A stretch of 64,000 nucleotides of DNA from an uncultured bacterium. GTDB lineage: Bacteria > Babelota > Babeliae > Babelales > Babelaceae. A model generated the notes under the pieces. It was given only the letters and a program-made list of their open reading frames with translations. It made no database searches and was not told the DNA's origin. Position numbers and translations under genes: made by a program. The DNA lies in the NCBI GenBank assembly GCA_963722385.1, contig CAVRKK010000002.1, positions 1,024,001 through 1,088,000 of the forward strand, in the 5' to 3' direction. Positions 15,079 through 63,880 of the stretch are shown in pieces (position 1 is the first letter of the stretch; every line of letters begins with the position of its first letter).

Positions 15079-15894
15079 ATGCAAAAAATGGCAGCCGGTT
15101 TGCGTACCGCAAACCGTTCTTACGATCAGTTAAGACCGCTTAAGGTCACCTATGGTATATATCCCTATGCGGCTGGGTCTACACTTTTTGAGATAGGTAA
15201 CACAAAGGTATTATGCGCCGTTACCCTTCAGAATGGCGTTCCCCACTTTTTACGAGGTAAAAAGATGGGCTGGCTAACGGCTGAATATTCTTTGCTTCCT
15301 AGTGCGACGCCAATGCGTACGGTACGTGAAATAACCGCCAATAGGCGAAGTGGCAGGGTCATCGAAATATCTCGTTTGATTGGTAGATCGCTTCGTGCGG
15401 TTACCGATCTGAGTGTGCTTGGCGAACAAACGATCTTTATTGATTGTGATGTTTTGCAGGCTGATGGAGGCACGCGTACGGCGTCGATCACGGGTGCCTA
15501 TTTGGCATTGCGCGCGGCCCAAGCGCGGTGGCAAGCGCAGGGGATATTAGGCAAGCAGGCGTTGCTGCAGGATGAGCTTGCAGCGGTGTCGGTAGGCCTT
15601 GGCAATAAGGGGCCTTTGCTCGATATGGATTTTGCCGAAGATAGCGTGACGGCTGCTGATTATAATTTTGTGCTTACTCGTTCGGGCAAAATCGTTGAAA
15701 TTCAGGGCAGCGCTGAGCGTGCACCAATTGGCTGGAGCGATTATGATGAAATGAGACTTCTGGCCGTGCAAGGTGCACATGAGCTGTTTTTCTTTTACGA
15801 TGCTTATGCAAACGAGGAGCACTATTATGTATCTCAACAGCAGTCTCCTTATATGTTCTCTTCGGCGCAGATGGTTCTTGACGAGCGGCCGTGA
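15079..15894 (+). CDS. rph: Ribonuclease PH
   Basis: GWLTAEYSLLP, EISRLIGRSLR, DVLQADGGTRTASITG. Confidence 0.96.
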   Translation: MQKMAAGLRTANRSYDQLRPLKVTYGIYPYAAGSTLFEIGNTKVLCAVTLQNGVPHFLRGKKMGWLTAEYSLLPSATPMRTVREITANRRSGRVIEISRLIGRSLRAVTDLSVLGEQTIFIDCDVLQADGGTRTASITGAYLALRAAQARWQAQGILGKQALLQDELAAVSVGLGNKGPLLDMDFAEDSVTAADYNFVLTRSGKIVEIQGSAERAPIGWSDYDEMRLLAVQGAHELFFFYDAYANEEHYYVSQQQSPYMFSSAQMVLDERP

Positions 15895-16850
15895 ATTTGG
15901 TTGGTTTGTTAAGTGTTGACGGGCAGTATGCTCGGGCAACATTCGCAGCAGCAATTGCTGACAAGCATGTTTTTTTGTTCAAAGGGGGAGCAGCAAGCCC
16001 CCTTTTCTGTTATTTCTTGGTAAAGCGCATTGCTGAACTGCTGGGTTGTCAGGTTGTTTCTTTCGACTGCTCGACAGAGAGTCATCAAAAGCTCTTGGCG
16101 TTTTGTGAGGTTTCTTTTTTGACTGAATCATTACTTTGGATTAAAGACCTCTCAGCATTGCCAGCTCGCCAGCGGCAGCTTACTCTTGAGTACCTCGTAC
16201 GCTATCAAGGACCCCATAAAATTTGCTTTGCCTATGATGAGGTGCCGACCGATAGCTTGCCAACGACCTGTGTTATTGAAATGGACGAAGCTATAACTGC
16301 GAGCACTTACCCATTATTGTTTTCTGTTATACATAACAAAGAATTGGTTGACGACAGGCTTTGTCAGCAGGTGTTTAAAAAATTTAAGCATATGGCGCTT
16401 GATGCTGCTTGTATGGTAGCGCATTACCAGGAAGTGCTTGGTCGGCGATGTGAAGATTTTGTTGACCAGTGGCTTGAGCGGCTGTGGCCAGTTGATCGTT
16501 CGCTTTTTTTACTCAGCCAGCTTTTATTAGCCAAAGACCGTGCCGGGTTTTTATCGGCATGGCCTCGGTATGCGATGATGTACCCAGAAGAGTTTTGGCT
16601 GGCTTACTGGTCTGATCAGCTGTGGCAAGCAGTTCTATTTGTGGAATTGAAAGGCGCCTCAAAGCAAGGGTATCGTTTGCCCTTCTCTTTTATGCAGCGT
16701 GATTGGCGGTCATATACGCTTCAAGAGCTTGTTCGTGCTCATGCATTTCTTACGACGGTTGATGATCGGCTTAAGCATGGGTCAATCATGGATGGCATTG
16801 ACCTCTTTTGTCTTAAATTTTTGACGCATCATTTTGTAAAAAGTGCTTAA
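15891..16850 (+). CDS. Probable divergent DNA polymerase III delta subunit (HolA-like)
   Basis: Size and motif layout: N-terminal FLFKG, SFL...WIKD, LEYL, C-terminal LVRAH.FL.TVDDRLKHG...IDLF. Confidence 0.55.
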   Translation: MNLVGLLSVDGQYARATFAAAIADKHVFLFKGGAASPLFCYFLVKRIAELLGCQVVSFDCSTESHQKLLAFCEVSFLTESLLWIKDLSALPARQRQLTLEYLVRYQGPHKICFAYDEVPTDSLPTTCVIEMDEAITASTYPLLFSVIHNKELVDDRLCQQVFKKFKHMALDAACMVAHYQEVLGRRCEDFVDQWLERLWPVDRSLFLLSQLLLAKDRAGFLSAWPRYAMMYPEEFWLAYWSDQLWQAVLFVELKGASKQGYRLPFSFMQRDWRSYTLQELVRAHAFLTTVDDRLKHGSIMDGIDLFCLKFLTHHFVKSA

Positions 16851-16925
16851 CTACTTATTTCGCTAAAGAGATATAACAAAGTCTTGTCTTGCTGCTGCTT
16901 AAAACACTAGGTTGTATGGTAGGTT

Positions 16926-17852
16926 TTGATGAGGAGTGGTATGGGTATGAGATTATTATTCTACTTCGTTGCGTCTTTAGCGGCTGGCGTGTTCCAGGTA
17001 GATGCGCATATGAACTGCGAAGCACTCTCATTAGAAAAGCGTATTATACGCGTGCGTAGCGTTGTTTCTTTGTTAGGTGCGGGTCACACGCGATTTATGC
17101 TCAAACAGCTTGATGGGTTTCCTCAACGATATATTACCAAGACAGCTGCCGAGGCATTGGGGGTATTTATCGCTGAGTCGATCGGGATACCGTGCAATCA
17201 TGTTCAGATTATCCCTGCTCAGGAAAGCTGTCAACACAAGTATTTTGCGCAACAGCCAGCAACGCTCCATACGTATATTGAGGGCAAAACGTTAGCCAAG
17301 CTTAAAATCTTTGACGCTATCGACATTCGGCTGAAGCAACGTTATGTGGAGAATAGGGTTAAAACGGGATTAACAGAAACAACCATCAGAGGAATGGCAA
17401 TGCATCCTGATTTACCACCTATAGCTGCGCTTGACACGTTTATAGGCAACTACGATCGCCACGCAAGCAATTTGATATATAACAAACATGACGATCATTT
17501 TTATGCGATTGATTTTACGGTTACCTTTTATGTCAACCTTGCCGATATAGCGATCGAAAACCTTCAGGAGATGATTGAGGCCGGGGTTGCTTTTAATGAT
17601 CGTGAGATGCAAGGGTTAAGAAGTTACCGTGATACGTTGCGTAAAATTTTAGCGATGCATACGCCAGCATCGTTACGCGCGCAGTTTGAAAAATTTCTTG
17701 AGCAAACTGGGATGTCTATCGTGCTACCTTCGTTAGCTCACCGCAAAAAAAAGGCGCTTTATCGGACCATAAAACAATGTAAGGAGCTTATAAACGTAAA
17801 TTACCATGCTTCACAAAAATTATTAATCCTTCTTAATAAGATATGCTCATGA
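16926..17852 (+). CDS. Signal-peptide protein with PI3/4-kinase/HipA-like kinase fold (paralog 1)
   Basis: Hydrophobic N-terminus; LKQ...E, DTFIGNYDRHASN, YAIDF. Confidence 0.75.
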   Translation: MMRSGMGMRLLFYFVASLAAGVFQVDAHMNCEALSLEKRIIRVRSVVSLLGAGHTRFMLKQLDGFPQRYITKTAAEALGVFIAESIGIPCNHVQIIPAQESCQHKYFAQQPATLHTYIEGKTLAKLKIFDAIDIRLKQRYVENRVKTGLTETTIRGMAMHPDLPPIAALDTFIGNYDRHASNLIYNKHDDHFYAIDFTVTFYVNLADIAIENLQEMIEAGVAFNDREMQGLRSYRDTLRKILAMHTPASLRAQFEKFLEQTGMSIVLPSLAHRKKKALYRTIKQCKELINVNYHASQKLLILLNKICS

Positions 17853-18772
17853 ATATATATAACAAAAAAATTATATTAATCACTGCTTTGCTTAGTTCTT
17901 TTCATTGTGCTGCTCGAGCTATGGATTGGCGAAGGATGACGTATGTTCGTGATATGTCAAATCGTCATAGCAATATATACTTGTTATCGGGTGCTGATAA
18001 TAGCCAGTTTCTCATAAAGCAGAGAATGGCTTGCGGTGTTCATGCGGTGTTTATGACCGTAGTTGAGACTTTTGGGGCCTATGTTGCCCAAACAGTTGGT
18101 ATACCGGGCAACCGTGTATCCCTGGTTGCAGCTCGTGAGCAGTGTCCGTTTGCTGAACTTACCAAGTATCCCGCTACGCTGCACACGTTCATGCCTGGCG
18201 CTGAGGTCAAAACAGTAAAGCGGTTTGCCGACGTCAGTTTTAATCTACGTTGTACACGTAAGAATGGCAAAGGAGTATGTGGGCTGACGCATCAGCACGT
18301 TAAAAATATGGCCTTGCATCCAGATTTGCCCAAAATTATGGCGGTTGATACTTTTATTGGCAATAAGCGTCATGGAGCTAATTTGCTCTATGATGAGCGC
18401 GCTGACAGGTTTTACGCAATTGATTTCGGCGCAACGCTCCGTTCAAGTTTTGGTAAAGCAAGCGTAAAGCAGCTTTCTGGTATTTTAGCCAACGCTGATT
18501 CATTCAATGGTGCTGAAATTGAAGCCTTGTTTAGTTATTATAAAACGCTTAAGCGGTTATTAAAGATGCATTCACTGCAAAGCTTGATGAGAAAGCTCCA
18601 AGAGTTAACCGAGCAGGCTGAGCTATCACCTTCGACGCCATTTTGCAAAGATGCCACGAAATCGTATAAAAAATATATCAGAGAAAGAAAAAAATGTTTG
18701 CGTGAGAACTACTACGGTGTCCAGGAAATGGTGGCAATTTTCGAGAAATTTTTTAGGAATGCTGATGATTGA
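17843..18772 (+). CDS. Signal-peptide kinase-fold protein (paralog 2, catalytic Asp missing)
   Basis: IKQ...E, PATLH, DTFIGNKRHGAN, YAIDFG. Confidence 0.7.
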   Translation: MLMNIYNKKIILITALLSSFHCAARAMDWRRMTYVRDMSNRHSNIYLLSGADNSQFLIKQRMACGVHAVFMTVVETFGAYVAQTVGIPGNRVSLVAAREQCPFAELTKYPATLHTFMPGAEVKTVKRFADVSFNLRCTRKNGKGVCGLTHQHVKNMALHPDLPKIMAVDTFIGNKRHGANLLYDERADRFYAIDFGATLRSSFGKASVKQLSGILANADSFNGAEIEALFSYYKTLKRLLKMHSLQSLMRKLQELTEQAELSPSTPFCKDATKSYKKYIRERKKCLRENYYGVQEMVAIFEKFFRNADD

Positions 18773-19707
18773 GAAAAGTGATGATGCGTTTTCACGTAAT
18801 TGGCACGCATTATATTAGCGTGAGCATAATAGGTATGGCTTTTCACGCAGCGTTACAGGGGCTGTCATGCGTAGAGTTGCGGCACGAGGGAAAATTTGCG
18901 GGTATACACAGCGATATGGTAGAATTCAGTCGGAGGGATGGTCAGCGTTTCTTGCTCAAACAGCGTTATGGCGTGCTTCTCCACAAGCATTTTATGAGCG
19001 TTCTTGAAGTTTTGGGCAGTAAAATGGCCGAGTCAATGAATATACGATGTAATTATGTAGAGATCGTGCCTGCTGACCAATGCAAGGAGTATAAGCATTA
19101 CCCCGATCGACCAGCCACGTTGCACTCTTTTGTTCCTGGCGTGCAAATCGATAAGAGTATTTTTAAAAACCAGATTAATATCAAGCAGCGCAATAGGAAT
19201 GAAAGAAGCTCAAAGCGGGGGCTTAATTTGGCTATCATGAGAAATATGGCAAAACACCCGTTTCTTCCCGTGTTGGTAGCGTTTGATACGTTTATTGGCA
19301 ATAGGGATCGTGCAGGGGTTAATCTTCTCTACGAAGAAAAGACTGATACCTTTACTGCTATCGATTTTGGTGATACATTCAAATTTAATTTGAGCGAGAT
19401 TGCGTTAAAGAATTTAAGAAAATTTAAAAAAGCGAAAAAGCTTAATTTCAATGCCCGCGAATGGGAGGCGGTAGCTGTCTACCGTGACACACTTGTGCGG
19501 TTGGTAAGCATGTATAATCCTCGAAACATGTATAGTATGCTCTTGGCAATCGCGCGTGAAGCGAAGATTATTTCTGATAACCCAACATATGCTTCCAGAA
19601 AACAGGATCTGGAGGAGCTTTTGGCGCTTCACAAGAAATTCATGTTTGAGAATTATGCTAGTGTAAAGAAGCTTATTGCTGAGCTTGATGATATCTTGGG
19701 ATATTAA
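18769..19707 (+). CDS. Signal-peptide kinase-fold protein (paralog 3; start may be ATG 18781)
   Basis: LKQ...E, PATLH, DTFIGNRDRAGVN, TAIDFG. Confidence 0.7.
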   Translation: MRKVMMRFHVIGTHYISVSIIGMAFHAALQGLSCVELRHEGKFAGIHSDMVEFSRRDGQRFLLKQRYGVLLHKHFMSVLEVLGSKMAESMNIRCNYVEIVPADQCKEYKHYPDRPATLHSFVPGVQIDKSIFKNQINIKQRNRNERSSKRGLNLAIMRNMAKHPFLPVLVAFDTFIGNRDRAGVNLLYEEKTDTFTAIDFGDTFKFNLSEIALKNLRKFKKAKKLNFNAREWEAVAVYRDTLVRLVSMYNPRNMYSMLLAIAREAKIISDNPTYASRKQDLEELLALHKKFMFENYASVKKLIAELDDILGY

Positions 19708-21073: not shown

Positions 21074-21239
21074 AAGAAATTCTTGAACCTTGATTATTTT
21101 GCATGGCAAATCTTTCAAGATAATGATAGAATTGCATGGCAAAACTGTCAAGGCTTATATAAAAGCTGATGAAATTTATTGTCGCATGAGTGAGATGGCT
21201 GACCTAAAAATCCGTTAAAAACGAAACAAAGAATATTTT

Positions 21240-21626
21240 TTATTCTGCCGATAATTGAGAAAGTATATATGCGCCAACCGCCATAACCGTGTCACGTACG
21301 GCAATGTCATAAAGAGTTCCCATGGTAACTAGATTTAGAACGATAGCCATAAGCCATCCAGTTGCAATGAGAGCTGCTTTTTTGGTCCAATGGGACATAA
21401 GAATTCCTACCCCAACTATAATCTCAAATATGCCTACGATATACATGAATATTGCTGGAGAAATAGGCAAAAACTGAGCGATTGTTGGACTTAGGTACTT
21501 TGACCAGTGGGTAATAATATTCGTAAATTTATCAGCACCTGCGGCTATAAAAAGGAGCCCATACGTTAACTTGAGCATGAGTTGTAGAGTATGTGCTTTT
21601 TGCGGGGTGACGTGAGCTACTGCCAT
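21240..21626 (-). CDS. DoxX-like membrane protein
   Basis: AGADKFTN...W.KYL, VGIFEIIVG, YDIAVRD; four hydrophobic segments. Confidence 0.8.
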   Translation of the reverse strand: MAVAHVTPQKAHTLQLMLKLTYGLLFIAAGADKFTNIITHWSKYLSPTIAQFLPISPAIFMYIVGIFEIIVGVGILMSHWTKKAALIATGWLMAIVLNLVTMGTLYDIAVRDTVMAVGAYILSQLSAE

Positions 21627-21919: not shown

Positions 21920-24391
21920 TAGTATACGGACGACCTGGGTTAATTGTAATGGATTGCCGTGGTGTGCCACGACGCCTTATCCCAAGAATGAACAATTTTT
22001 TTCATGTAGTCTTGGTGGTTTTAAAGGTCGTCTACAGATAACTTGTTATCAAAATTGACACTTGCGGTAGCACGATGATGATACTGACGGTACTTATAGA
22101 ATAGAAAAACGGCGCCTACGGTGGCTGCTGTTAAAGCAGTAAGGCCAAGGGGAATACCTACGGTAGTACCTATAATTACTCCGAGAGGTAAACTACTACT
22201 TGATCCATCACCATCGCCCTGCGAGCTTCCAAGCAAGACTGGTATGAGTGAAACATCATTTGAATAGAGATTAGCGGTGAGTGCATAGGTGCCACTTGGT
22301 GAAAAAGTGATACTGACACAGTGGGTTGAGTTAGCGGGAAGTAAAGATGTTGCTGCTTGTGGTAATGTACCTCCTGTAGCGTTAAAGAAAGTGACACTGC
22401 TCGAATTGCTATTAGCTACCGCGAGATAGTTGCCATTTAATGAAGAAGCAATTGACTGGGGATTCATGGTATTCTGTGGTAACAGATAGGAACGACCATC
22501 AGCAAGAGTGTCATTGTGTACCGTAAAGATGGTGACATCATTTGACGCGCTATTAGCAGTTGCAAGATAGAGGTTGTTATTGTTAGCAAAAAAGGTAATT
22601 GACTGCGGTTCTGTAGAACCACTTGGAAGAGCATATGAAAGAGCATTGTTTAAATCGCCAGCTGTTACCTTAAAGAGAGTTACATCGCTTGAATATGCAT
22701 TTGCTGTTGCAAGATATATCCCTTCTGGAGAAAAAGAAAGACTGACGGGATATAAAGAGCCTGCAGGTAATGGATAAGAAAGGGCATTTTGTAAAGATCC
22801 TTCTACGACGTTAAATACAGTTACATCGTTTGAATCGCTGTTGGCTACTGCAAGATAAAAATCGTTGGGTGCAAATTCTACCGATGCTGGTTTTGTCGAT
22901 CCTGCAGGTAAGGTATATGAAATATTTGCCACAAGCTTGTCATTTACTAAGGCAAAGAGTGTTATATCGTGTGAATTACTATTGGCAGTTGCAACATAGG
23001 AATTATTAGTTGAAAAAGCAATAGAAGCTGGATGGGTTGAATTTAAAGGTAGTTTATAAGATATTACCGAAGCTAAAGAAGTGCCATTCATGGTGAACAA
23101 GGTTACATCACTTGAGTTGAAATTTGCTGTAGCAAAATGCTTATTGTCGGATGCAAATGCTATTGAGTCAGGCTGCGTAGAGCCGAGTGGTAAATGAAAG
23201 GAAATGCTTGTGACTTGTTCCACTTGAAATATCGTTACATCATTTGATCCACTATTAGCTGTAGCAAGGTAAGAACCATCAGGTGAGAATGCTACTGATT
23301 CAGGTTCGTTGGAACCACTTGGTAATGGGTATGATATTCCTTTCGATAGGACTCCTCCTGCTTCCATTTGAAATATTGTCACACTCCCAGGATTATAATC
23401 GTTAGTAGTAGCAAGATATGACCCGTTGGTCGAAAATGCGACTGAGGAAGGCTCACTAGAACCGCTTGGTAATGCATATGATACTGCTCCCGACAATACT
23501 CCTCCTACTCCAATCTGGAATATTGTTACATCATTTGAGAATATATTAGCGATAGCAAGATATGAACCATCGGGCGAAAAGGTTACTGAGTAAGGAAAGC
23601 TAGAACCGCTTGGTAGGACATATGATACTGCTCCCGATAACACGCCCCCTGCTCCAACCTGGAATAGTGTTACATCATTTGAGCCGTTATTAGCCGTAGC
23701 GAGATATGAGCCATCAGGTGAAAATATCACTGAATAAGGAGTACTTGAGCCGCTTGGTAATGCATAGGATGTTGCGCCCGATAGTACGCCTCCTGCTCCG
23801 ACTTGAAATACTGTTACATTAGCTGAGTTTGCGTTAACAGTAGCAAGACATGAACCGTCGGGAGAAAATGCTACTGAATAAGGAGTACTTGAGCCGCTTG
23901 GTAATGCGTACGAAGCTGCATCCGATAAGACGCCTCCTGCTCCTACCTGAAATACTGTTACATCGGTTGAGTTCGTGTTAGCAGTAGCAAGATATGAACT
24001 ATTAGAAGAAAATGCTACTGAAATAGGATAGGTAGAACCACTTGGTAATGCATATGACACTGCTCCCGATAACACACCTCCTGCTCCTACTTGAAATATT
24101 GTTACGTTGTTTGAGTCTGCATCAGCAGTAGCAAGATATAAGCCGTTAGGTGAAAATGCTACTGATACAGGATAGCCAGAACCGCTTGGTAATGCATAAG
24201 TGGATGCTCCTGATAAAGTTACCGCGTTGGCATGTATGCTTGTTAAAATGGTCAGAACTGCGCTGAGCAGAAGAGTGTAAAAATGACCTATGTGTAATGA
24301 CATATTATCAGGCCCCTTATTTTTTGAATTTTTAAGTTAGTAAAGAGCATAAATGACATTTAAGATATTAGCAATCTACGTTTTGCTTGAG
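21920..24391. repeat. Duplicated block, copy 1 (copy 2 at 26535-28989)
   Basis: Near-identical DNA at 21920-23027 vs 26535-27636 and at 24178-24391 vs 28778-28989; the middle is diverged. Confidence 0.95.
22021..24303 (-). CDS. Signal-peptide double beta-propeller (WD40/lactonase-like repeats) with C-terminal TM anchor, copy 1
   Basis: About 14 repeats of ~48 aa (SYALPSGSxxPxSVAFSPDGSYLATANxxSNDVTIF); N-terminal signal; C-terminal hydrophobic helix followed by a basic tail. Confidence 0.9.
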   Translation of the reverse strand: MSLHIGHFYTLLLSAVLTILTSIHANAVTLSGASTYALPSGSGYPVSVAFSPNGLYLATADADSNNVTIFQVGAGGVLSGAVSYALPSGSTYPISVAFSSNSSYLATANTNSTDVTVFQVGAGGVLSDAASYALPSGSSTPYSVAFSPDGSCLATVNANSANVTVFQVGAGGVLSGATSYALPSGSSTPYSVIFSPDGSYLATANNGSNDVTLFQVGAGGVLSGAVSYVLPSGSSFPYSVTFSPDGSYLAIANIFSNDVTIFQIGVGGVLSGAVSYALPSGSSEPSSVAFSTNGSYLATTNDYNPGSVTIFQMEAGGVLSKGISYPLPSGSNEPESVAFSPDGSYLATANSGSNDVTIFQVEQVTSISFHLPLGSTQPDSIAFASDNKHFATANFNSSDVTLFTMNGTSLASVISYKLPLNSTHPASIAFSTNNSYVATANSNSHDITLFALVNDKLVANISYTLPAGSTKPASVEFAPNDFYLAVANSDSNDVTVFNVVEGSLQNALSYPLPAGSLYPVSLSFSPEGIYLATANAYSSDVTLFKVTAGDLNNALSYALPSGSTEPQSITFFANNNNLYLATANSASNDVTIFTVHNDTLADGRSYLLPQNTMNPQSIASSLNGNYLAVANSNSSSVTFFNATGGTLPQAATSLLPANSTHCVSITFSPSGTYALTANLYSNDVSLIPVLLGSSQGDGDGSSSSLPLGVIIGTTVGIPLGLTALTAATVGAVFLFYKYRQYHHRATASVNFDNKLSVDDL

Positions 24392-24726
24392 TGTTGCACC
24401 ACAATGGTAATGTCGTCATGAGACCACAATAGAAATGTTGCCTTCCATCCAGTAAAGTGGTGAGTAGAAATAAAGCAAACCATCCCTGAATAGAAGGCAA
24501 TTCTATGAGAAGGCTTATTCTAGTGAATGATTATAACATTGGAAAAATTAAAAGATGGTTTAATAACACAAACCATGCACATCTCGCTATTAATAAAAAT
24601 AAATTTCGCTATCAAGTGGCTTTCTAAAAAAGTTATAAAAAGCAACCTTTCATATAATCATCCCCTGAGACTATCAACCTCTCGGGTCCTTCTACCTCAG
24701 CGCTATATGATATTGTCATTAATAAT

Positions 24727-24764
24727 GAACCCTGCAAAAGCCTGAAGCAATAAATTGCAGGGTT
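24727..24764. repeat. 38-bp inverted repeat, left copy (internally palindromic)
   Basis: GAACCCTGCAAAAGCCTGAAGCAATAAATTGCAGGGTT; 35/38 match to the reverse complement of 26247-26284. Confidence 0.9.
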
Positions 24765-24890
24765 CATTGCAGGGTTCTAAAATCTGGCTTTCAATCGATT
24801 GTTTGAAAAGTCGATTTTCTAAGTAATCAAAATTTGTTTTGACTCATGATGGCTTTTGGGTTATTGTATGTGCATAAACGGTGAGGGCAT

Positions 24891-26237
24891 ATGCTGGAAG
24901 AACTTTTGGCCCGCGAAGAGGGCAAGACGCTTGAATTTAAAGAAAGTACGCAGTCTCTACAGAAAATTATTCAGACCATTATTGCCTTTGCAAATACTGC
25001 GGGCGGGGTAATCGTTGTAGGAGTAAAAGACAAAACGAAAGAAGTTGTAGGTCTTAAAAATGTTTTGCAGGATGAAGAAAAAATAGCCAATTCCGTTGCT
25101 GAATCTGTTTCTCCTCTGCTTGTACCGACCATTAGCTTATTTACATGGCGCGGTAAAGACGTGCTTATTATTTATGTTTCACATTGCTATGGACCCTTTT
25201 TTTTAAAAGCCAAAGGGTTAGAGCTAGGCACACTTATAAGATTTGGCTCAACTAATCGTCTTGCTGATCAACATATCATTCAAGAAATCTTACGCTTAAA
25301 GAATAACAAGCACTTTGATGAGCAGCCTAATTTTGACTGTCCAATGCGGAACATCCGTTTTGATATCACTGAACAACTTTTTATACCAAAGAAAAAATTT
25401 ACTGAAAAAACAGCGCAGTCTTTAGAACTTATAGTTCAACATCAAGGCAAACCATTTCCCTCAAATGGTGCAGTTTTATTGTTTGCAGACAATCCTCGTG
25501 ATTTTTTTCCCGATGCAATTGTACGTCTTGGTCGATTTTTAGGAACGACCAAGACTGAGATTATCGATCACAAGGATCTTGAAGTTCCTCTTGCCACAGC
25601 ATTAGACCACATTGTCATGTTTATTCAACGTCACACTTCCATTGGGGCTAAGATTGAGGGAACGCGACGTCAGAACATACGGCAGTACCCATTGCCAGTC
25701 ATTCGAGAAGCAGTTATCAATTCATTGTTACATGCTGATTATTCTATGAAAGGTTTTTCAATTACAGTAGCCATTTTCGATGATCGTATTGAGGTAACTA
25801 ACCCTGGTGCACTTCCCTTAGGGTTGAGCTTAGAAGCTGCACTTTCTGGAATCTCTCAGCTTCGAAATCGTGTGATAGGCCGGGTATTTAGAGAACTTGA
25901 TCTTATCGAGCAGTGGGGCTCAGGATTGAAGCGCATGATCGAAATCTGCACCAAACAAAATATACGTCCACCAAAATTTGAAGAGCTGGGGAATTTTTTT
26001 AGAACAACTTTATATCATTCACCTAGATTGATGGCGATGGAGAAATGGGAACTGGTACTTATTGAATATCTACATAAGCATAAAGAAATAACGCCCAAAC
26101 AAGCACAAGTTCTGTGGAAAGTATCTGTTCGAACAACTGCAACACGCTTGGGAAAAATGTATCAAAAAGAACTGGTGATTGAAATAGCTACTTCTGCTTT
26201 TGATCCGTACAAAAAATTTATATTGCCCAGTGCGTAA
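24891..26237 (+). CDS. AlbA_2 (Schlafen-like) + HATPase_c_4 + HTH protein
   Basis: EGKTLEFKES, AFANTAGG.IVVGV.D, REAVINSLLHADY, DDRIEVTNPG, RN..I..VF..L.LIEQWGSG. Confidence 0.88.
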   Translation: MLEELLAREEGKTLEFKESTQSLQKIIQTIIAFANTAGGVIVVGVKDKTKEVVGLKNVLQDEEKIANSVAESVSPLLVPTISLFTWRGKDVLIIYVSHCYGPFFLKAKGLELGTLIRFGSTNRLADQHIIQEILRLKNNKHFDEQPNFDCPMRNIRFDITEQLFIPKKKFTEKTAQSLELIVQHQGKPFPSNGAVLLFADNPRDFFPDAIVRLGRFLGTTKTEIIDHKDLEVPLATALDHIVMFIQRHTSIGAKIEGTRRQNIRQYPLPVIREAVINSLLHADYSMKGFSITVAIFDDRIEVTNPGALPLGLSLEAALSGISQLRNRVIGRVFRELDLIEQWGSGLKRMIEICTKQNIRPPKFEELGNFFRTTLYHSPRLMAMEKWELVLIEYLHKHKEITPKQAQVLWKVSVRTTATRLGKMYQKELVIEIATSAFDPYKKFILPSA

Positions 26238-26246
26238 TCGACAACA

Positions 26247-26284
26247 AACCCTGCAACTTTTTGCTTCAGGGTTTTGCAGGGTTC
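26247..26284. repeat. 38-bp inverted repeat, right copy
   Basis: AACCCTGCAACTTTTTGCTTCAGGGTTTTGCAGGGTTC, starting 10 bp after the stop codon of the AlbA_2 gene. Confidence 0.9.
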
Positions 26285-26629
26285 TGGAATTATGCCGTGA
26301 AAATAACATGCCAAACGATTTAGCCCGCTCTCGCAAGCAGGCTTTCGAGATGAACCAGGCATGTTTCATGCTCAAGCTCATAGCGAGATTCTTTAAGTGA
26401 TGCACGAATATGGCATTATAACTTTGTGCTGAGATCAAAATGCTCGGCATAGTGAGCATGGCCCAATGCATTACGCTATATTTTTTGCATTACTCAAAAA
26501 TGGTATTTTGAAGGACTTAACGAGCTTTTTTTGCTAGTATACGGACGACTTGGGTTAATGGATTGCCCGTGTGTGCCACGACGCCTTATCCCAAGAATGA
26601 ACAATTTTTTTCATGTAGCCTTGGTGGTT

Positions 26630-28903
26630 TTAAAGATCGTCTACTGATGACTTGTTATCAAAATTGACACTTGCGGTAGCACGATGATGATACTGACGGT
26701 ACTTATAGAATAGAAAAACGGCGCCTATGGTGGCTGCTGTTAAAGCAGTAAGGCCAAGGGGAATACCTACGGTAGTACCTATAATTACTCCGAGAGGTAA
26801 ACTACTACTTGATCCATCACCATCGCCCTGCGAGCTTCCAAGCAAGACTGGTATGAGTGAAACATCATTTGAATAGAGATTAGCGGTGAGTGCATAGGTG
26901 CCACTTGGTGAAAAAGTGATACTGACACAGTGGGTTGAGTTAGCGGGAAGTAAAGATGTTGCTGCTTGTTGTAATGTACCTCCTGTAGCGTTAAAGAAAG
27001 TGACACTGCTCGAATTGCTATTAGCTACCGCGAGATAGTTGCCATTTAATGAAGAAGCAATTGACTGGGGATTCATGGTATTCTGTGGTAACAGATAGGA
27101 ACGACCATCAGCAAGAGTGTCATTGTGTACCGTAAAGATGGTGACATCATTTGACGCGCTATTAGCAGTTGCAAGATAGAGGTTGTTATTGTTAGCAAAA
27201 AAGGTAATTGACTGCGGTTCTGTAGAACCACTTGGAAGAGCATATGAAAGAGCATTGTTTAAATCGCCAGCTGTTACCTTAAAGAGAGTTACATCGCTTG
27301 AATATGCATTTGCTGTTGCAAGATATATCCCTTCTGGAGAAAAAGAAAGACTGACGGGATATAAAGAGCCTGCAGGTAATGGATAAGAAAGGGCATTTTG
27401 TAAAGATCCTTCTACGACGTTAAATACAGTTACATCGTTTGAATCGCTGTTGGCTACTGCAAGATAAAAATCGTTGGGTGCAAATTCTACCGATGCTGGT
27501 TTTGTCGATCCTGCAGGTAAGGTATATGAAATATTTGCCACAAGCTTGTCATTTACTAAGGCAAAGAGTGTTATATCGTGTGAATTACTATTGGCAGTTG
27601 CAACATAGGAATTATTAGTTGAAAAAGCAATAGAAGAGGGATTAAGTGATCCTGAAGGTAGTTTATAGGATATTCCTGATACAGAAGAAGTACTGTTCCT
27701 GGTAAACAAGGTTACATCGCTTGAATTATAGTTTGCTGTAGCAAAATGCTTATTGTTTGATGCAAATGCTATTGAGTCAGGCTGTGTAGAGCCGGGTGGT
27801 AGGTGGTATGAAGTGCTTGTGGTTCGTTCTACTTGAAATATTGTTACATTGTTTGAATTATAATTAGCAGTAGCAAGATATGAACCGTCGGCCGAAAAGG
27901 CTACTGAGTAAGGGTAGGAACTTGGTAATGCATATGACATTGCTCCCGATAACACGCCCCCTGATCCGACCTGGAATATTGTTACATTGGCTGAGCCTAT
28001 ATTAGCAGTAGCAAGATATGAACCATCAGGCGAAAAGGCTACTGAGTAAGACTCACTAGAGCCACTTGGTAATGCATATGAAACTGCCCCCGACAATGCT
28101 CCACCGGCGCCAACTTGGAATATCGTCACGTCACTTGAACCGTAGTTAGCGGTAGCAAGATATAATCCATTGGGCGAAAATGCTACTGAAGAAGGGGAGG
28201 TAGAACCGGTAGGTAATGCATATGAAACTGCCCCAGCCAATACTCCACCGGCGCCAACTTGGAATATTGTTACATCATTTGAGCTCGCATTAGCAGTAGC
28301 AAGATATGATCCATCGGGCGAAAATGCTACTGTCCAGGGAGAGCTAGAACCACTTGGTAATGCATATGAAACTGGTCCAACCAATACTCCACCTGCACCA
28401 ACTTGGAATATCGTTACGTCATTTGAGCCCTCATTAGCAGTAGCAAGATATGATCCATCGGGTGAAAACGCTACTGATAAAGGATCACTAGAACCGCTTG
28501 GTAATGCATATGATACTGCTCCCGATAACACACCTCCTGCTCCAACCTGGAATATAGTTACATTGGCTGAGTCGGAATTAGCAGTAGCAAGATATGAATC
28601 ATCGGGTGAAAAGGTTACTGAGTAAGGCGCGCTAGAACCGCTTGGTAATGCATATGATACTGCTCCCGATAACACACCTCCTGCTCCAACCTGGAATATA
28701 GTTACATTGGCTGAGTAGAAATTAGCAGTAGCAAGATATGAATCATCGGGCGAAAATGCTACTGAATTAGGATTTATAGAACCGCTTGGTAATGCATAAG
28801 TGGATGCTCCTGATAAAGTTACCGCGTTGGCATGTATGCTTGTTAAAATGGTCAGAACTGCGCTGAGCAGAAGAGTGTAAAAATGACCTATGTGTAATGA
28901 CAT
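26630..28903 (-). CDS. Signal-peptide double beta-propeller with C-terminal TM anchor, copy 2
   Basis: Same architecture as 22021-24303; identical leader and near-identical C-terminal half; start MSLHIGH at 28903. Confidence 0.9.
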   Translation of the reverse strand: MSLHIGHFYTLLLSAVLTILTSIHANAVTLSGASTYALPSGSINPNSVAFSPDDSYLATANFYSANVTIFQVGAGGVLSGAVSYALPSGSSAPYSVTFSPDDSYLATANSDSANVTIFQVGAGGVLSGAVSYALPSGSSDPLSVAFSPDGSYLATANEGSNDVTIFQVGAGGVLVGPVSYALPSGSSSPWTVAFSPDGSYLATANASSNDVTIFQVGAGGVLAGAVSYALPTGSTSPSSVAFSPNGLYLATANYGSSDVTIFQVGAGGALSGAVSYALPSGSSESYSVAFSPDGSYLATANIGSANVTIFQVGSGGVLSGAMSYALPSSYPYSVAFSADGSYLATANYNSNNVTIFQVERTTSTSYHLPPGSTQPDSIAFASNNKHFATANYNSSDVTLFTRNSTSSVSGISYKLPSGSLNPSSIAFSTNNSYVATANSNSHDITLFALVNDKLVANISYTLPAGSTKPASVEFAPNDFYLAVANSDSNDVTVFNVVEGSLQNALSYPLPAGSLYPVSLSFSPEGIYLATANAYSSDVTLFKVTAGDLNNALSYALPSGSTEPQSITFFANNNNLYLATANSASNDVTIFTVHNDTLADGRSYLLPQNTMNPQSIASSLNGNYLAVANSNSSSVTFFNATGGTLQQAATSLLPANSTHCVSITFSPSGTYALTANLYSNDVSLIPVLLGSSQGDGDGSSSSLPLGVIIGTTVGIPLGLTALTAATIGAVFLFYKYRQYHHRATASVNFDNKSSVDDL

Positions 28904-29097
28904 ATTATCAGGCCCCTTATTTTTTGAATTTAAGTTAGTAAAGAGCATAAATGACATTTAAGATATTAGCAATCTACGTTTTGCTTGAGGTCTACACTTC
29001 CTCTTCAAAAATGGTATTTTGAAAGGTTTAACGAGCTTCTTTTGCTATATAGCTTTTGTTAAATGCTTGCAAAGACACAAAAGCGGGATAGCAATGA

Positions 29098-29266
29098 TAA
29101 AAATCTGTTAAAAAATTGAGCAAAGAATATTGTTTATTCTACTGATAATTGCGAAAGTACGTATGTACCAACCGCCATAACCGTGTCACGTAGGCAATGT
29201 CATAAAAAGGCCCCATGGTCACTAAATTTACGACGATAACCATAAGCCATCTAGCTGCAACGAGCT
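29098..29266 (-). pseudogene. Degenerate 3' fragment of the DoxX-like gene plus its downstream flank
   Basis: Aligns to 21205-21375 with substitutions and a 1-bp deletion (CACGTACGGC vs CACGTAGGC). Confidence 0.85.
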
Positions 29267-29292
29267 CCTCCCTGAAATAGCAAGTATAATGC

Positions 29293-30423
29293 TCAAGGAA
29301 TTTGCCGAGCTTGACGATCTGCTGCATAAAAATCGCTAAGCCAGGTATTCAAAAATGCTACCAATGGCTCAATCTGCCCATTAAGTGCCGAGACAACAAC
29401 ATGAGGGCTGTAGCGAGCAATCTGGCTCTTAAGCTCTTCTAGGTTAGCTTTATCAGCTTTGTTGAATACATACAACATGGGCTTATCGATCTTAAGCTCC
29501 TCAAGCACGCTCTGTACAACCAGACAATGCTCTTGCCAGTTGGGATTTGAAATATCGACCACATGCAGTAATAAGCTAGCATATTCCAATTCTGAAAGTG
29601 TCGACTTAAACGCATTAACCAGATGATGGGGTAATTGTTGAATAAATCCAACGGTATCCGAAATAAGAGCTTTTTTGCTATCAACATATAATTCCCGCGT
29701 AGCGGTATCGAGCGTTGAAAAGAGCTTATTTTCGGCCAACACCTCACTTTTAGTGAGTGCGTTGAGAATTGTTGACTTGCCAGCGTTGGTGTAACCCACT
29801 AAGCAGAGAAGGGGGATCTGGCTTGCAATACGCTTTTTTCGTTGTGTCGCGCGAATTTGCTCAAGATGCGCAAGGTCTTTTTTGAGCTTGACCATAATAC
29901 GCTCAAGATGTTGCGTCTCTTTCTCTTTCTGCGTTTCACCTGGGCCGCGTGTGCCGATACGCCCAGCCTGTTGGGACATAGATACACCCTGACCAGCCAA
30001 ATGGGCCTTCTCATATTGAAAACGTGCAAGCGCTACTTGCTTTTTCCCTTCAGCCGATACAGCCCCGCGCTCAAAAATCTCAAGAATAAGCAACGTGCGG
30101 TCAATAATCGAACAGCCGAGCGTATTAGCAAGATTGCGTCCTTGCATAACCGATAACGGTTCTGAAAAGATTACCTCTTCTATCTTCTTCTCTGAACAGA
30201 GCTTTGCCAAGTCATCCAACTTACCTTTGGTAATAAAAGTGGCAGGCTCAATCTGACGAAGCTTGATATACACTTCTTCATCATAATCACGCCCGCTTGA
30301 ATGAACGAGGCTGCGAAACTCTTCCCAATAGGATTGTATGTCTTTAAGCGGGTTATCAGGTGCTTGTATGCCGACGATAAGGGTGCGTGGGCGAGGAGCC
30401 AGAGCGGGTATTAGGTTTTTCAT
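29293..30423 (-). CDS. hflX: GTPase HflX
   Basis: DRTLLILEIF, GIGTRGPGET-like motif, VGYTNAGKST, LFSTLD, DTVGFI, FKSTL.E, NKAD. Confidence 0.97.
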   Translation of the reverse strand: MKNLIPALAPRPRTLIVGIQAPDNPLKDIQSYWEEFRSLVHSSGRDYDEEVYIKLRQIEPATFITKGKLDDLAKLCSEKKIEEVIFSEPLSVMQGRNLANTLGCSIIDRTLLILEIFERGAVSAEGKKQVALARFQYEKAHLAGQGVSMSQQAGRIGTRGPGETQKEKETQHLERIMVKLKKDLAHLEQIRATQRKKRIASQIPLLCLVGYTNAGKSTILNALTKSEVLAENKLFSTLDTATRELYVDSKKALISDTVGFIQQLPHHLVNAFKSTLSELEYASLLLHVVDISNPNWQEHCLVVQSVLEELKIDKPMLYVFNKADKANLEELKSQIARYSPHVVVSALNGQIEPLVAFLNTWLSDFYAADRQARQIP

Positions 30424-44477: not shown

Positions 44478-46241
44478 ATGAAAAAATTGCTAATTGTCGC
44501 CTATGGTGCGCTCCTTCTGAATCTGCATCTCATGGTGCATGGAGTTGCTCATGTGAGGGTTCAACCTGAGCCCGAGGAAGAGAATTCTCGCCAGGTGCTG
44601 CAAGAGCTCCAAGACCAAGTTCAAGATGTGGTTGCTGAGCTTCCTCGTCAGCTGATTCATGATTTAGTGTTGAGGAATCCCTACCGAACAAAAACAGCAA
44701 TGGTGAGGGAGACGGTGAGTGATGACATACCTAAGGCTGAGAAGAAATTTAGTAAGCAACGAGCAGGAATAACAAAGCATGCACTCGCCAAATTTTTAGG
44801 CAAGCCCGTTTCAGGAAGCGCGCCGCGGATAGCGCTTGCCTTTAGCGGTGGTGGTTTTAGGGCCATGATTAGCACCTTGGGATTTTTAAAAGGTGCTCAT
44901 GATATTAATCTTTTAGGCGCAACACATTATATGGCTGGGTTGTCGGGATCAAGCTGGGCATTAGCACCGTGGTTAGCTTCTGGCAAGAGCATAAGCGACT
45001 ATTTGACGGATCTTAGTGTTCGCTTGAAAGGTGGTATTCAGCCGCTCTCGCCATCCAAAGAGCTTATTAAAGCAGTGCTTTCTGTTTTTATCACAAAGTT
45101 TCTCTATGGACAATCGGTAACCGCCATGGATATCTATGGTGCATTATTAGCACGCTTGCTGCTTCACCAGGCTGGCATTAGCGGGATGAGTTTATCATTC
45201 AGTGATGCGCATAAACAAGTGGGTAGTGCGCGTATTCCGCTACCTCTTTATACGGCAATTGAAACAACGGTCAAGCCTTATGAATGGATGGAAGTTTCGC
45301 CTTTTGAAGTTGGTAGTTCATACGTTAAGTCATATGTACCAGTTTGGGCATTCGGAAGAACATTCGATAATAAGAACTCGGTGACATCCTCGAGCATGTT
45401 GGGCTTTGCCCCTGAGCAAACGCTTGGTTACTTTATGGCGGTTTTTGGTTCTGCTTTCGAAGTTGCGCTTAAAGACATAATAGAGCATTCGGCTGATATT
45501 ATTGATTTGCTGATGCAACATTTACCTGAAGCGATCGATGAGTATTTTGGTAAATCGACTTTTTATAGTATGACCTATGCTGCTTTTAAAGCAGTGGCAC
45601 CTAAAATCCTTGAAAATTTCTTTGGCGACCTCAGCAAGTATATTGAGCAAGCAGCCTCTTCATGGTCTGACATTCGCTTGCTGCCAGATGTGCAGCCAAA
45701 TTTTACGTATAATATGGCCGGTATGCCATTGGCCGATGTAAAAACGTTGTCCATGGTTGATGCCGGTATTGATTTCAATCTACCAATTCCTCCCTTGCTG
45801 CGGAAAGCGCGTGGTGTCGATGTTATTATTGCCTATGACCTGTCATCGAATATTAGCGGACCGCAAGGGGCTGCTGCATTAAGAAAAGCTGAAAAATATG
45901 CACGTGATCGTGGTTATAAATTTCCTTCTATTGACTACAAGCGCGCTGCTAAAGAACCGGTTAGCGTTTTTAAAGATCTTTCAGACCCAGAAACACCAAC
46001 GGTTATTTACTTCCCGCTGATTAATGATCCAGCATATAAGGTTACTCAATGCGATGCATCAGGCCAATGTACTGCCGTCCCCTTTAATATCGAGGACTGC
46101 ATGGCGGCTGGAGCCTGTGCAACCAGCAACTTCGATTATGATCGTGAGGATGTTGAGCGTCTTGCAGGATTGGCAGAGTTTACTATTAAAAAGCATGCAG
46201 ATGTTATTAAAAAGGCTGTTGAAGAAAAAATTCAGGCTTAA
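44478..46241 (+). CDS. Secreted cPLA2/phospholipase B-type (PLAc domain) phospholipase
   Basis: Signal peptide; SGGGFRAM, YMAGLSGSSW, PLPLYTA, WMEVSPFEVG, VFGSAF, VDAGIDFNLPIPPLLRKARGVDVIIAYD. Confidence 0.9.
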   Translation: MKKLLIVAYGALLLNLHLMVHGVAHVRVQPEPEEENSRQVLQELQDQVQDVVAELPRQLIHDLVLRNPYRTKTAMVRETVSDDIPKAEKKFSKQRAGITKHALAKFLGKPVSGSAPRIALAFSGGGFRAMISTLGFLKGAHDINLLGATHYMAGLSGSSWALAPWLASGKSISDYLTDLSVRLKGGIQPLSPSKELIKAVLSVFITKFLYGQSVTAMDIYGALLARLLLHQAGISGMSLSFSDAHKQVGSARIPLPLYTAIETTVKPYEWMEVSPFEVGSSYVKSYVPVWAFGRTFDNKNSVTSSSMLGFAPEQTLGYFMAVFGSAFEVALKDIIEHSADIIDLLMQHLPEAIDEYFGKSTFYSMTYAAFKAVAPKILENFFGDLSKYIEQAASSWSDIRLLPDVQPNFTYNMAGMPLADVKTLSMVDAGIDFNLPIPPLLRKARGVDVIIAYDLSSNISGPQGAAALRKAEKYARDRGYKFPSIDYKRAAKEPVSVFKDLSDPETPTVIYFPLINDPAYKVTQCDASGQCTAVPFNIEDCMAAGACATSNFDYDREDVERLAGLAEFTIKKHADVIKKAVEEKIQA

Positions 46242-49300: not shown

Positions 49301-49370
49301 GATACTCTCCCTATACTTAGGTAAATATGCTACCGAAATTTTAAAATGGTGGCAACTGTGTATTAAGCTA

Positions 49371-60048: not shown

Positions 60049-60666
60049 ATGAAAAAAGGTTTTTTAAAAGATATTTTAAGGCTGAATCAGACGGTATATT
60101 CTTTTAAAGAGCTTGCTTTGCTTTGGCCAAATACCGAACCGAAAACACTCAAATCACGGTTACATTACTATGTTCAGGAAGGAGATCTTTATCATATTCG
60201 GCGTGGCTTATATGCTAAAGATAAAAAATACGATCGCTTTGAGCTTGCCACTAAGATTATGGCTCCTGCGTATATTAGTTTCGAATCAGTTCTAGTACCA
60301 GCAGGGATTATATTTCAACATTATAAGACTATTTTTGTTGCCTCAGACCAGTCAAAAGATATTCTTTGTGATGGCCAACTTTATTCTTTCACAAAGCTTA
60401 AATACTCACTTCTTACTGACGCGACGGGGATTGAGCTGCTTCAAAATTACAGTATAGCCAGCGCTGAAAGAGCTTTCCTAGATATTCTATACATCAATAA
60501 AAGTTACTATTTTGATAATCTGAGCCCACTTAATTGGAATAAAATCTATGAGATTCTACCAGTCTATAAGAACAAGAGCATGGCAAAAACAGTTGACCTC
60601 TACCATAAAACAGCGCAAGATATAGATGACAATCGATTCTACTCAACACAAAGATATCCTCATTAG
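60049..60666 (+). CDS. Type IV TA antitoxin, AbiEi family
   Basis: wHTH region with L.HIRRGLY, PAYISFESVL...GII.Q, IASAERAFLD.LY. Confidence 0.85.
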   Translation: MKKGFLKDILRLNQTVYSFKELALLWPNTEPKTLKSRLHYYVQEGDLYHIRRGLYAKDKKYDRFELATKIMAPAYISFESVLVPAGIIFQHYKTIFVASDQSKDILCDGQLYSFTKLKYSLLTDATGIELLQNYSIASAERAFLDILYINKSYYFDNLSPLNWNKIYEILPVYKNKSMAKTVDLYHKTAQDIDDNRFYSTQRYPH

Positions 60667-62573: not shown

Positions 62574-62734
62574 CAGGCTTTCCTCTTGATTTTTGTTAAG
62601 AAAAAGTTAGGATAATAAACATCGAATAAGAAATATGAGTCAAAAAGTATTAAGTTGTTAAGAAGGAGATACTGGTATTGATCAACGTAATAAAAATCAA
62701 GTAAAAGATATCAACATTAAAGGGAGGGTTGCTA

Positions 62735-63880
62735 ATGAAAGAGAATATATTATTAAGTATAGCAACATATTTACTCATCAATGTATCAATGAGTGCTGGA
62801 GTATGTGCTCTCCAATCTTACGCTGTACCGCCTGCTAGCGGTGTTGGCGCAATTCCTTATTCAGCAGCATTTTCACCGTCAGGTTTTTATTTGGCTACTG
62901 CTAATTATAGCACGAATAATGTAACCATATTTACCGTAGAATCGGGAGAGACCTTGAATGGAGGTACATCATATGCTTTACCAGCAGGCTCAACGGATCC
63001 TCAGTCAGTAGCGTTCTCGCCTAATGGCTTATATCTCGCTACTGCTAACTTTAGCTCAAAGGATGTAACGATATTTCAGGTAGGAGCAGGGGGTATTCTG
63101 AATGGAGGAACATCTTATACTTTGCCTTCTGGTTCTCAGTATCCTAATTCAGTAGCATTTTCACCCAACGGTTTATATCTTGCTACCGCTAATGAATTAG
63201 ATGTAACTATATTCCAAGTAGGGGCAGGAGGCGCACTATCAGGAGCGATTTCTTATGTTTTACCAAGCGGTTCTATTGGACCCCATTTAGCAGCTTTCTC
63301 ACCTGATGGATCATATCTTGCTACTGCTAATAGCGTTTCAAATGACGTAACGATATTTCAAATAGGAGCTGGAGGGGTATTGTCAGGAGAAAAGTCTTAC
63401 GCATTACCAAGCGGTTCTACTAGTCCAGAGGCGGTAGCATTTTCACCTAATGGATTATACCTTGCTACTGCTAATTTTTTCTCAAGTGATGTAACAGTAT
63501 TTACTGTAGGATCAGGAGGAGCTTTGAGTGGAGGAACATCATATGCATTACCAGGTTCTACCACACCAACATCAATCACATTTTCACCTAATGGATTATA
63601 CCTTGCTACTCAAAGTGCAGGTTCAAATGGTGTCTCAAATGGTGTAACATTATTTCAAGTAGGAGGAGTGCTATCGGGAGAAGATTCTTGTGCTTTACCT
63701 TCCGGTTCTGATGAGCCTTTTTCGGTAACATTTTCACCAGATAGCTCTTATATAGCTACAGCTAATAATTCATATGATGTTACGATATTTAGTATGAATT
63801 GCACATGCTCTAATTCAGGTTTAAGCTCTAGCAACGCTGCAAGCCATTTGCAAAGTTTACTTATGTATGGTTTGGATTAA
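62735..63880 (+). CDS. Signal-peptide single beta-propeller, same repeat family as 22021/26630, no TM anchor
   Basis: Seven repeats SYALPSGSxxPxxVAFSPNGLYLATANxxSxDVTIFQVGAGG; RBS GGGAGG upstream. Confidence 0.88.
   Translation: MKENILLSIATYLLINVSMSAGVCALQSYAVPPASGVGAIPYSAAFSPSGFYLATANYSTNNVTIFTVESGETLNGGTSYALPAGSTDPQSVAFSPNGLYLATANFSSKDVTIFQVGAGGILNGGTSYTLPSGSQYPNSVAFSPNGLYLATANELDVTIFQVGAGGALSGAISYVLPSGSIGPHLAAFSPDGSYLATANSVSNDVTIFQIGAGGVLSGEKSYALPSGSTSPEAVAFSPNGLYLATANFFSSDVTVFTVGSGGALSGGTSYALPGSTTPTSITFSPNGLYLATQSAGSNGVSNGVTLFQVGGVLSGEDSCALPSGSDEPFSVTFSPDSSYIATANNSYDVTIFSMNCTCSNSGLSSSNAASHLQSLLMYGLD

Follow-up and report, generated by a model that had tools for sequence, protein, structure and literature searches.

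Two genes on the reverse strand of the window, the whole 64,000-nucleotide stretch that was analysed, encode large repeat proteins of common architecture. Gene A (F39; 22021..24303) specifies 760 amino acids and gene B (F40; 26630..28903) 757, the latter counted from the ATG equivalent to that of A; a further in-frame ATG lies upstream at 28957 in B only. Each chain consists entirely of a leader (signal peptide), 14 blades of ~48 residues forming two seven-bladed beta-propellers, and a 32-residue apolar anchor with its 24-residue tail. The distal propeller, which is the variable one, comprises blades 1-7 (A, 23218..24225; B, 27827..28825), and the membrane-proximal propeller, here termed the stalk, comprises blades 8-14 (A, 22225..23217; B, 26834..27826), all on the reverse strand. 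The anchor of A (22096..22191) has GxxxG-type spacing; basic residues come next, then a tail that contains SVNF and is acidic at its end. The anchor of B occupies 26705..26800. Blades recur every 144 bp, as the preliminary description had stated, with the exception of A blade 6 (147 bp) and B blade 7 (138 bp). Between the two genes lies a forward-strand open reading frame (24891..26237) with AlbA_2 and RecG-C-like regions, which is bounded by 38-bp inverted repeats (24727-24764 and 26247-26284) and is probably an insertion outside the propeller system.

A Pfam scan of A and B returned propeller-type families only, with no NACHT NTPase and no HET domain. The lactonase-type seven-bladed propeller PF10282 scored 148.7 and 168.7 bits against a cut-off of 21.7. 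Assignment to the 6-phosphogluconolactonase equivalog (NF008258, a single propeller) was rejected at 78.8 bits against a cut-off of 370, as was the canonical WD40 repeat of ~40 residues, since the 48-column consensus contains neither the GH/WD dipeptides nor the DH[S/T]W tetrad; PF00400 passes on the whole protein, while single stretches all fall below significance. The best Foldseek match was 2ymu (E 1.2e-36, 26% identity), and a search of the ESM Atlas with B at 0.9 gave no match.

Both paralogs of the preliminary description are real, but they belong to a far larger family, a third member of which (F41; 62729..63880, forward strand), with a leader and seven blades and without a long apolar anchor, lies in the same window. 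Ribosomal protein L1, also encoded in the window, had at least 120 matches; the three of these that bore an organism name were to Ca. Babeliaceae and Ca. Dependentiae, at 71-72% identity. In the source genome (G000; 1.60 Mb in 2 contigs, 93% complete) a blade HMM identified at least 46 family loci, a few of them single-blade fragments, with 562 blades covering 92,995 bp or 5.8% of the genome. Five of the 46 loci are split over several open reading frames, and there are short fragments besides. Among single open reading frames with at least seven blades, 31 of 33 contain whole multiples of seven (7, 14, 21 or 28), and most have their own leader. A second genome of the same genus (G001) shows a similar expansion, with 68 open reading frames, 759 blades and at least 125,928 bp counted in 25 regions picked from search matches, which are part of that genome. 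Across 261 genomes of the order, with four candidates scored per genome, matches at E 1e-30 came from 16, and those below 1e-100 from G000, G001 and G008 alone; similar proteins are present in metagenome collections. A quick tree of the stalks of 53 genes with 14, 21 or 28 blades interleaved G000 and G001 with at least seven forced label changes, which indicates that the family is older than the split between these genomes and that lineage-specific growth came later. An orthologue of A/B beside hflX in G001 was considered and rejected: the family gene there lies upstream rather than downstream, and its stalk belongs to a different clade.

Probably converted ends and exchanged blades

The near-identical ends that had been described for A and B were recovered in our comparison. 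At the 3′ end, positions 22021-23027 of A and 26630-27636 of B differ at 5 of 1007 positions (22027, 22036, 22040, 22119 and 22361), and a homogenised tract (22041..23027 in A, 26650..27636 in B) contains 2 differences in 987 bp. The homogenised 5′ tract, which covers the upstream region, the leader and the start of blade 1 (24178..24391 in A, 28778..28989 in B), differs solely by a 2-bp indel upstream of the ATG. Between these ends all seven collinear distal blades differ, with 72-81% identity, on par with off-diagonal pairs, and a dS of 0.69. The membrane-proximal propeller is collinear and conserved, in keeping with the proposed constant stalk, but constancy does not extend to its outer edge: blade 8 is 83% identical and the identical 3′ tract begins within blade 9, such that the start of that blade differs too, while blades 10-14 are 99-100% identical.

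The non-coding flanks of the two genes are 88-90% identical (3′ flank, 88%), compared with 2 differences in the 987-bp coding tract, which argues that the conversion was recent. A 48-bp remnant (26494..26541) is 90% identical to the upstream region of B (29005-29051) and corresponds to the start of the next tandem unit, indicating that A and B are older tandem duplicates. The identical ends are thus best explained by an apparent recent conversion between older tandem duplicates, with no need for a special constant-region mechanism. The likely history would combine an older tandem duplication, a recent conversion that covered leader and stalk, and replacement of distal blades from a wider pool.

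Several tracts are shared with other loci. A tract spanning B blades 3-5 (28212..28485) is common to blades 9-11 of F31 (G000:C2:750951-751224), a gene 300 kb from B, with 2 differences in 274 bp (99.3%), and a second tract spanning B blades 5-6 (28001..28189) matches F31 blades 11-12 exactly over 189 bp. F31 blade 11 derives from B blade 5, but between the two shared tracts it carries, verbatim, the 38-nt d-a loop of B blade 7 (27900..27937) with its two-codon (6-bp) deletion. Here a single loop was swapped on its own. Similarly, a tract around A blade 5 (23457..23666) is common to F32 blade 3, exact over 169 bp and with 3 differences across its 210 bp, and is partly present in the broken locus F19. 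In a quick tree the stalks of A/B and those of F31/F32/F44 form two distinct clades with SH-aLRT support of 99 and 100, and gene duplication therefore cannot account for the shared tracts.

The same pattern was observed across the G000 family. The nearest neighbour of a stalk blade was the collinear blade of another gene in 123 of 168 cases and a blade of its own gene in none (0/168). For distal blades (n=244) the nearest neighbour lay in the same gene in 63 cases, at a non-collinear position or in a fragment in 125, and was collinear in just 56. Exact runs of at least 45 nt linked 47 within-gene pairs among 245 G000 distal blades, together with 8 non-collinear and 3 collinear between-gene pairs, compared with 0 in five column permutations, a weak null that removes all relatedness. 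No exact run of this length was found among 336 G001 distal blades, indicating that recent exchange is limited to a subset of the G000 family. The constant-variable-constant profile recurs in F31/F32/F44 and in F16/F17; it is absent from F05/F15 and F30/F42, collinear pairs whose two parts have equal dS. The best match of a distal blade lay in its own genome for 204 of 244 G000 and 201 of 334 G001 blades, and in the other genome for 40 and 133, respectively; stalk shares were similar, and there was no clean clustering by genome. Taken together, the non-collinear tracts shared with F31 and F32, the nearest neighbours and the exact runs show that copying within and between genes has involved individual blades, series of blades and lone loops, which bears out the blade shuffling or gene conversion proposed in the preliminary description. 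Loss of mismatch repair was rejected as a cause, since MutS is present in G000.

Variable columns of the distal propeller

Variation between A and B had been placed at two spots per blade, and the loop motifs quoted for those spots are present in the blades of both proteins. At columns 8, 9, 11, 27, 28 and 30, 36 of 42 cells differ between A and B compared with 53 of 294 elsewhere, a contrast that is partly circular because A and B themselves had served to nominate five of the six columns. An AlphaFold model of the B ectodomain, built from a 26-sequence alignment (mean pLDDT 91.6, pTM 0.60), contains 14 four-stranded blades in which columns 8-9 end the d-a loop, column 11 begins strand a and columns 27-30 form the b-c turn, such that the variable sites fall on propeller loops as anticipated. 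The d-a loop and the b-c turn make up the top face of a propeller.

Pairwise dN/dS at the six loop columns of distal blades, based on 55 and 29 disjoint pairs, was 0.86-0.89 relative to their own dS and 1.33-1.62 relative to the dS of all columns (bootstrap 1.03-1.67 and 1.12-2.27), while in G000 the scaffold gave 0.24-0.30 and the same six columns in the stalk gave 0.14-0.24. In G001, which played no part in choosing the columns, loops gave 0.72-0.90 versus 0.18-0.19 and 0.15-0.17. Maximum-likelihood estimates, for which blades gapped in more than six codons or at any of the four columns were set aside, placed omega for four loop columns at 1.05-1.20 in distal blades, with a likelihood that is flat from 0.5 to 2, and at 0.25 in the stalk, where the values as a whole were 0.19-0.25. 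For six columns omega was 0.29-0.87, the value of 0.29 coming from the recombining pool, and for the scaffold 0.16-0.18. The loop columns require a tree ~12 times as long as the scaffold does and ~5-6 times as long as four other variable columns do; the estimate is near saturation, and because of this saturation the likelihood test of omega above 1 is uninformative. The site-wise analysis thus separates loops at about 1 from a scaffold at 0.16-0.3, while an excess over 1 was not established. By these values the distal loop sites are fast-changing and freed from the constraint seen in the stalk, with an omega indistinguishable from 1. The dN/dS contrast shows that changes in the top-face loops are tolerated or favoured while changes in the scaffold are purged; selection for change may lie behind this contrast.

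The variable sites of distal blades are rich in Tyr, Phe and Trp. Column 11 is aromatic in 31% of distal and 1% of stalk blades, and four sites present 237 different residue combinations among 245 distal blades.

Export, anchor and localisation

A cysteine near the N-terminus and another at the junction of distal propeller and stalk occur together or are missing together in 62 of 82 open reading frames (scored in rough windows), A and B having neither. Such pairing is expected for a disulfide in an exported protein, and together with the leaders it points to a family of predicted Sec-exported proteins. G000 carries Omp85 and two secretins, such that an anchor in the inner membrane would face the periplasm; an inner-membrane protein with periplasmic propellers would be the default reading for a diderm. 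LpxC was not found in G000, G001 or G008, in agreement with PMC4776705 in what its available part says of Babeliales.

The apolar span is unusually long, with 28-37 residues in 71 of 76 anchored open reading frames, and a VN[FY]-like motif is conserved in the tails of 53 of the 76. Processing by exosortase or rhombosortase was considered and rejected: neither the rhomboid nor the exosortase family (PF01694, PF09721) was found in any of the three genomes (G000, G001 and G008), and none of six C-terminal pieces came near the cut-off of a CTERM model (PEP-CTERM, GlyGly-CTERM). An HMM of anchor and tail retrieved one more family fragment from G000 and no unrelated ectodomain, indicating that this region is not a shared sorting domain. 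An E-x-x-x-L-[LIV] tail occurs in 6 of the 76, all from one seven-blade subfamily, and 11 other open reading frames end in a Ser/Thr-rich stalk, a small-residue site and a short apolar segment. We take the former to be dileucine-like and the latter to be GPI-signal-like, C-termini that would resemble signals of the eukaryotic secretory pathway.

Such C-termini bring up a further reading, which we regard as decidedly unlikely, in which an intracellular bacterium would place a recombination-driven variable receptor repertoire into the membranes of its host. Delivery to the vacuole or plasma membrane might proceed by vesicles, for example, with the propellers facing the lumen or the outside; host sorting machinery would read the tails, and loop swapping would retune specificity in living populations. 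Putative outer membrane vesicles have been reported for Chromulinavorax (available part of PMC6561590).

A proposed standing repertoire of top faces and its analogues

The interpretation that we favour, with a probability of about 0.6, is that of a lineage-specific, blade-exchanging exported family with a collinear stalk, which holds a standing repertoire of top faces for recognition. In each member the distal block, of 7, 14 or 21 blades, is reshuffled, and it sits on a stalk under purifying selection with a C-terminal anchor. The distal blades are all 144-bp units with a conserved scaffold, a uniformity that lets homologous recombination (RecA is present in G000) copy whole blades, several in a row or only a loop, and the outcome is many different top faces standing side by side. 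Judged from the genes, exchange looks like a route to continual new binding surfaces. Isolated members of the phylum infect protists (according to the available part of PMC12172432), and the likeliest use would be recognition of variable molecules at the interface of bacterium and protist, for example ligands of the host surface or vacuole.

If repeats had been collapsed or cross-polished during assembly, shared tracts and identical ends could be artefacts, and the preliminary description had named this as a danger. Contigs of four runs from one study, possibly including the source sample, were compared with window positions 24420-30400, which contain one gene copy. Contigs of run X1 bridge the unique upstream (28859-29517) and downstream (26434-26665) flanks of B, those of run X2 carry the unique flanks of A, seen at 26535 as a loose end and at 28989 as a joint, and one X2 contig reproduces distal blades of B (28001-28318) with zero differences. 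Runs X3-X6 contribute small shares. The examined subset of loose ends and variant columns corresponded mostly to exact G000 paralogs (F05, F09, F14, F28, F32 and F45). The whole gene is spanned by no contig of the four runs, and short-read contigs and assembly disagree at a few positions in the tail: at 26619, 26728 and 26970 the X1 and X3 contigs covering the site carry the allele of A at full depth, and some of the few A/B differences may be strain-specific or have been dropped by the assembler. Against an artefact stand the recovery of the unique flanks of both copies and of B blades 4-6 in separately assembled contigs, which makes collapse unlikely, the few diagnostic differences and the loop with the 6-bp deletion inside the shared tracts, and the distal/stalk contrast, which G001 has too. 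We therefore regard an artefact as extremely improbable.

Two biological alternatives accept the exchange but read it differently. The family could be a periplasmic or envelope scaffold undergoing neutral repeat turnover, with recombination as a by-product of the repeats and loops that are unconstrained. A loop omega indistinguishable from 1, the broken and fragmentary loci, the near absence of recent exchange in G001 and the continuous amplification and decay that the available part of PMC9218822 describes as general in repetitive propellers all fit such turnover. We nevertheless consider it unlikely, since stalk blades keep the same loop columns under purifying selection, a reduced genome retains mostly intact copies at the cost of 5.8% of its length in G000 and at least 125,928 bp in G001, loop columns have, by an estimate near saturation, changed far more than the scaffold and than other variable columns, and aromatic residues abound in the distal loops. 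Alternatively, the proteins could serve evasion, as a variable coat that changes to escape phage receptor-binding proteins or being recognised by protists, one or a few members being expressed at a time, much as in antigenic variation. Variable exposed loops and conversion between loci would suit such a coat, and some tracts are common to broken copies and intact genes (F19 and A/F32, and F34 and F18). Two low-depth X1 contigs, seen as contigs only, also fuse pieces of different G000 blades or paralogs, crossing at identities of 44-46 bp; such mosaics can be assembler chimeras, however, and errors in long reads may account for the frameshifts. The majority of loci are full-length, each with a leader of its own, and their upstream regions are unrelated to one another; no 9-mer is shared upstream across the family, no expression locus or promoterless cassette array was seen, and the variation lies on one face with aromatic residues. 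Evasion is accordingly very unlikely in our estimation.

Should the repertoire reading hold, the family would provide concrete candidates for host range and recognition in Babeliota, of which little is known, in the testable form of a fixed stalk with an exchangeable top face, as well as a natural library of propeller positions open to randomisation. A single assembly is enough to read the exchange events, at a resolution that reaches an individual loop.

In pilE/pilS, vlsE, msp2 and the lamprey VLRs, segments are copied into a variable region between conserved ends, and the present family is alike in this respect. The architecture of VLRs or antigenic variation to which the locus had been likened was nonetheless missing. 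Cassette-type antigenic variation was rejected, since no one locus emerged as an expression site supplied by silent cassettes and nearly all single open reading frames with at least seven blades hold whole multiples of seven, most of them with their own leader; a search for a shared promoter or switch motif upstream of the family found none (the best 9-mer occurred in 6 of 37 regions). A lamprey VLR is an LRR solenoid assembled per cell from cassettes, whereas this family has a beta-propeller fold encoded in complete genomic open reading frames, with no sign of programmed or per-cell assembly. A diversity-generating retroelement (DGR) was likewise rejected: the sole RVT_1 match in G000, a 141-aa open frame, lies at a distance from the family loci and is presumably group II intron-like by its motifs, and G001 and G008 have none (genomes 90-93% complete). 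With no layout of silent cassettes and expression site and no DGR, the system is closer to concerted evolution of the HNWD kind than to VLRs.

Repetitive prokaryotic propellers (WRAP and STAND-linked WD40, including 2ymu) resemble the family in their recently amplified near-identical blades, top-face hotspots of diversity and frequent broken copies, as far as the available parts of PMC9218822 and PMC5587647 describe them. The family differs from the STAND-linked propellers in its 48-residue lactonase-like blades, its export and anchor, and its visible exchange between genes; the main texts of the two papers, searched with one term each, gave no match for gene conversion or recombination. Expansions of ankyrin, WD40 and beta-propeller proteins are reported for Babeliota in the available parts of PMC4378268, PMC4776705 and PMC6561590, and are similarly lineage-specific and signal-peptide-bearing in a protist-dependent phylum. 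Those parts give counts and presumed secretion rather than blade exchange, constant/variable layout or anchors. The family is undescribed in the literature searched, which consisted of main texts and lay largely outside subscription journals; a supplementary table of Babeliota proteins might list relatives.

The closest working analogue is the HNWD/NWD family of Podospora anserina (het-d, het-e), of which the Babeliota family is not a member. According to the available part of PMC1805685, HNWD repeats are likewise exchanged within and between loci across clades, and the variable residues lie in the d-a loop and b-c turn of the top face on a homogenised scaffold; positive selection at the variable codons has been demonstrated there. 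HNWD proteins have NACHT and HET domains (same source), while the Babeliota family has no NTPase or effector domain and, unlike HNWD, is bacterial, with a signal peptide, a membrane anchor and a stalk propeller that is not shuffled. If our reading is correct, it would represent a bacterial, exported counterpart of fungal HNWD diversification that occupies 6-8% of a reduced genome.

Sequences bordering the tandem propeller genes

Between A and B, the two tandem anchored propeller genes, lies an AlbA_2/RecG-C-like ORF that, together with its bordering repeats, occupies window positions 24727-26284. The borders are 38-bp inverted repeats with 92% identity, and a related repeat is found at positions 299702-299755 of contig C1 in the same genome (G000). 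The arrangement suggests insertion of a cassette that now separates the two genes. A 101-bp non-coding repeat at 26380-26480 has four further copies in G000 at 96-98% identity (C2:231686, 510455, 988879 and 1180072), two of which lie no more than about 1.5 kb from the family genes F38 and F44. Because a remnant at 29098-29264 matches the 3′ end of a DoxX-like gene (21205-21371) at 85% identity, an older duplicated piece brackets the A/B region.

Other ORFs and mobile elements

Four adjoining ORFs of 308-319 aa each occupy 15891-19707; two or three of them gave weak, below cut-off Pfam matches to HipA-like/PI3-PI4 kinases, and they may possibly constitute a tandem effector-kinase family. The window also encodes a lysophospholipase (PLA2_B; 44478-46241), an FG-GAP-type propeller (48044-49420) abutting an IS630-like DDE_3 transposase ORF (49383-50420), and an AbiEii nucleotidyltransferase (60626-61342). 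A DDE transposase (61531-62400) sits directly upstream of F41, the third family member in the window. Elsewhere in G000, at about 278.6 kb on C1, there is a truncated reverse transcriptase fragment (L078:1474-1863), which we take from its motifs to be group II intron-like.

The propeller family beyond A and B

The partial locus F34 (G000:C2:845721-846781) has 921 bp in common with F18 (C2:353003-356356) at 99.2% identity, covering the F18 stalk, anchor and 3′ flank. F34 thus arose recently, by either partial duplication or conversion. Each genome has one 28-blade member, F09 (G000:C2:3629-7933) and its counterpart in the same-genus genome G001 (C1:1010091-1014410), and the two fall together in the stalk tree; within F09 there are many near-identical tracts of up to 305 bp. 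While family members are scattered in G000, more than 20 family ORFs are packed into 60 kb of G001 (C1:1101664-1161811). In other genomes of the bacterial family, a leader and one related propeller are fused to long beta-rich repeat regions, which take the place of an anchor (L005, L006, L009 and L090).
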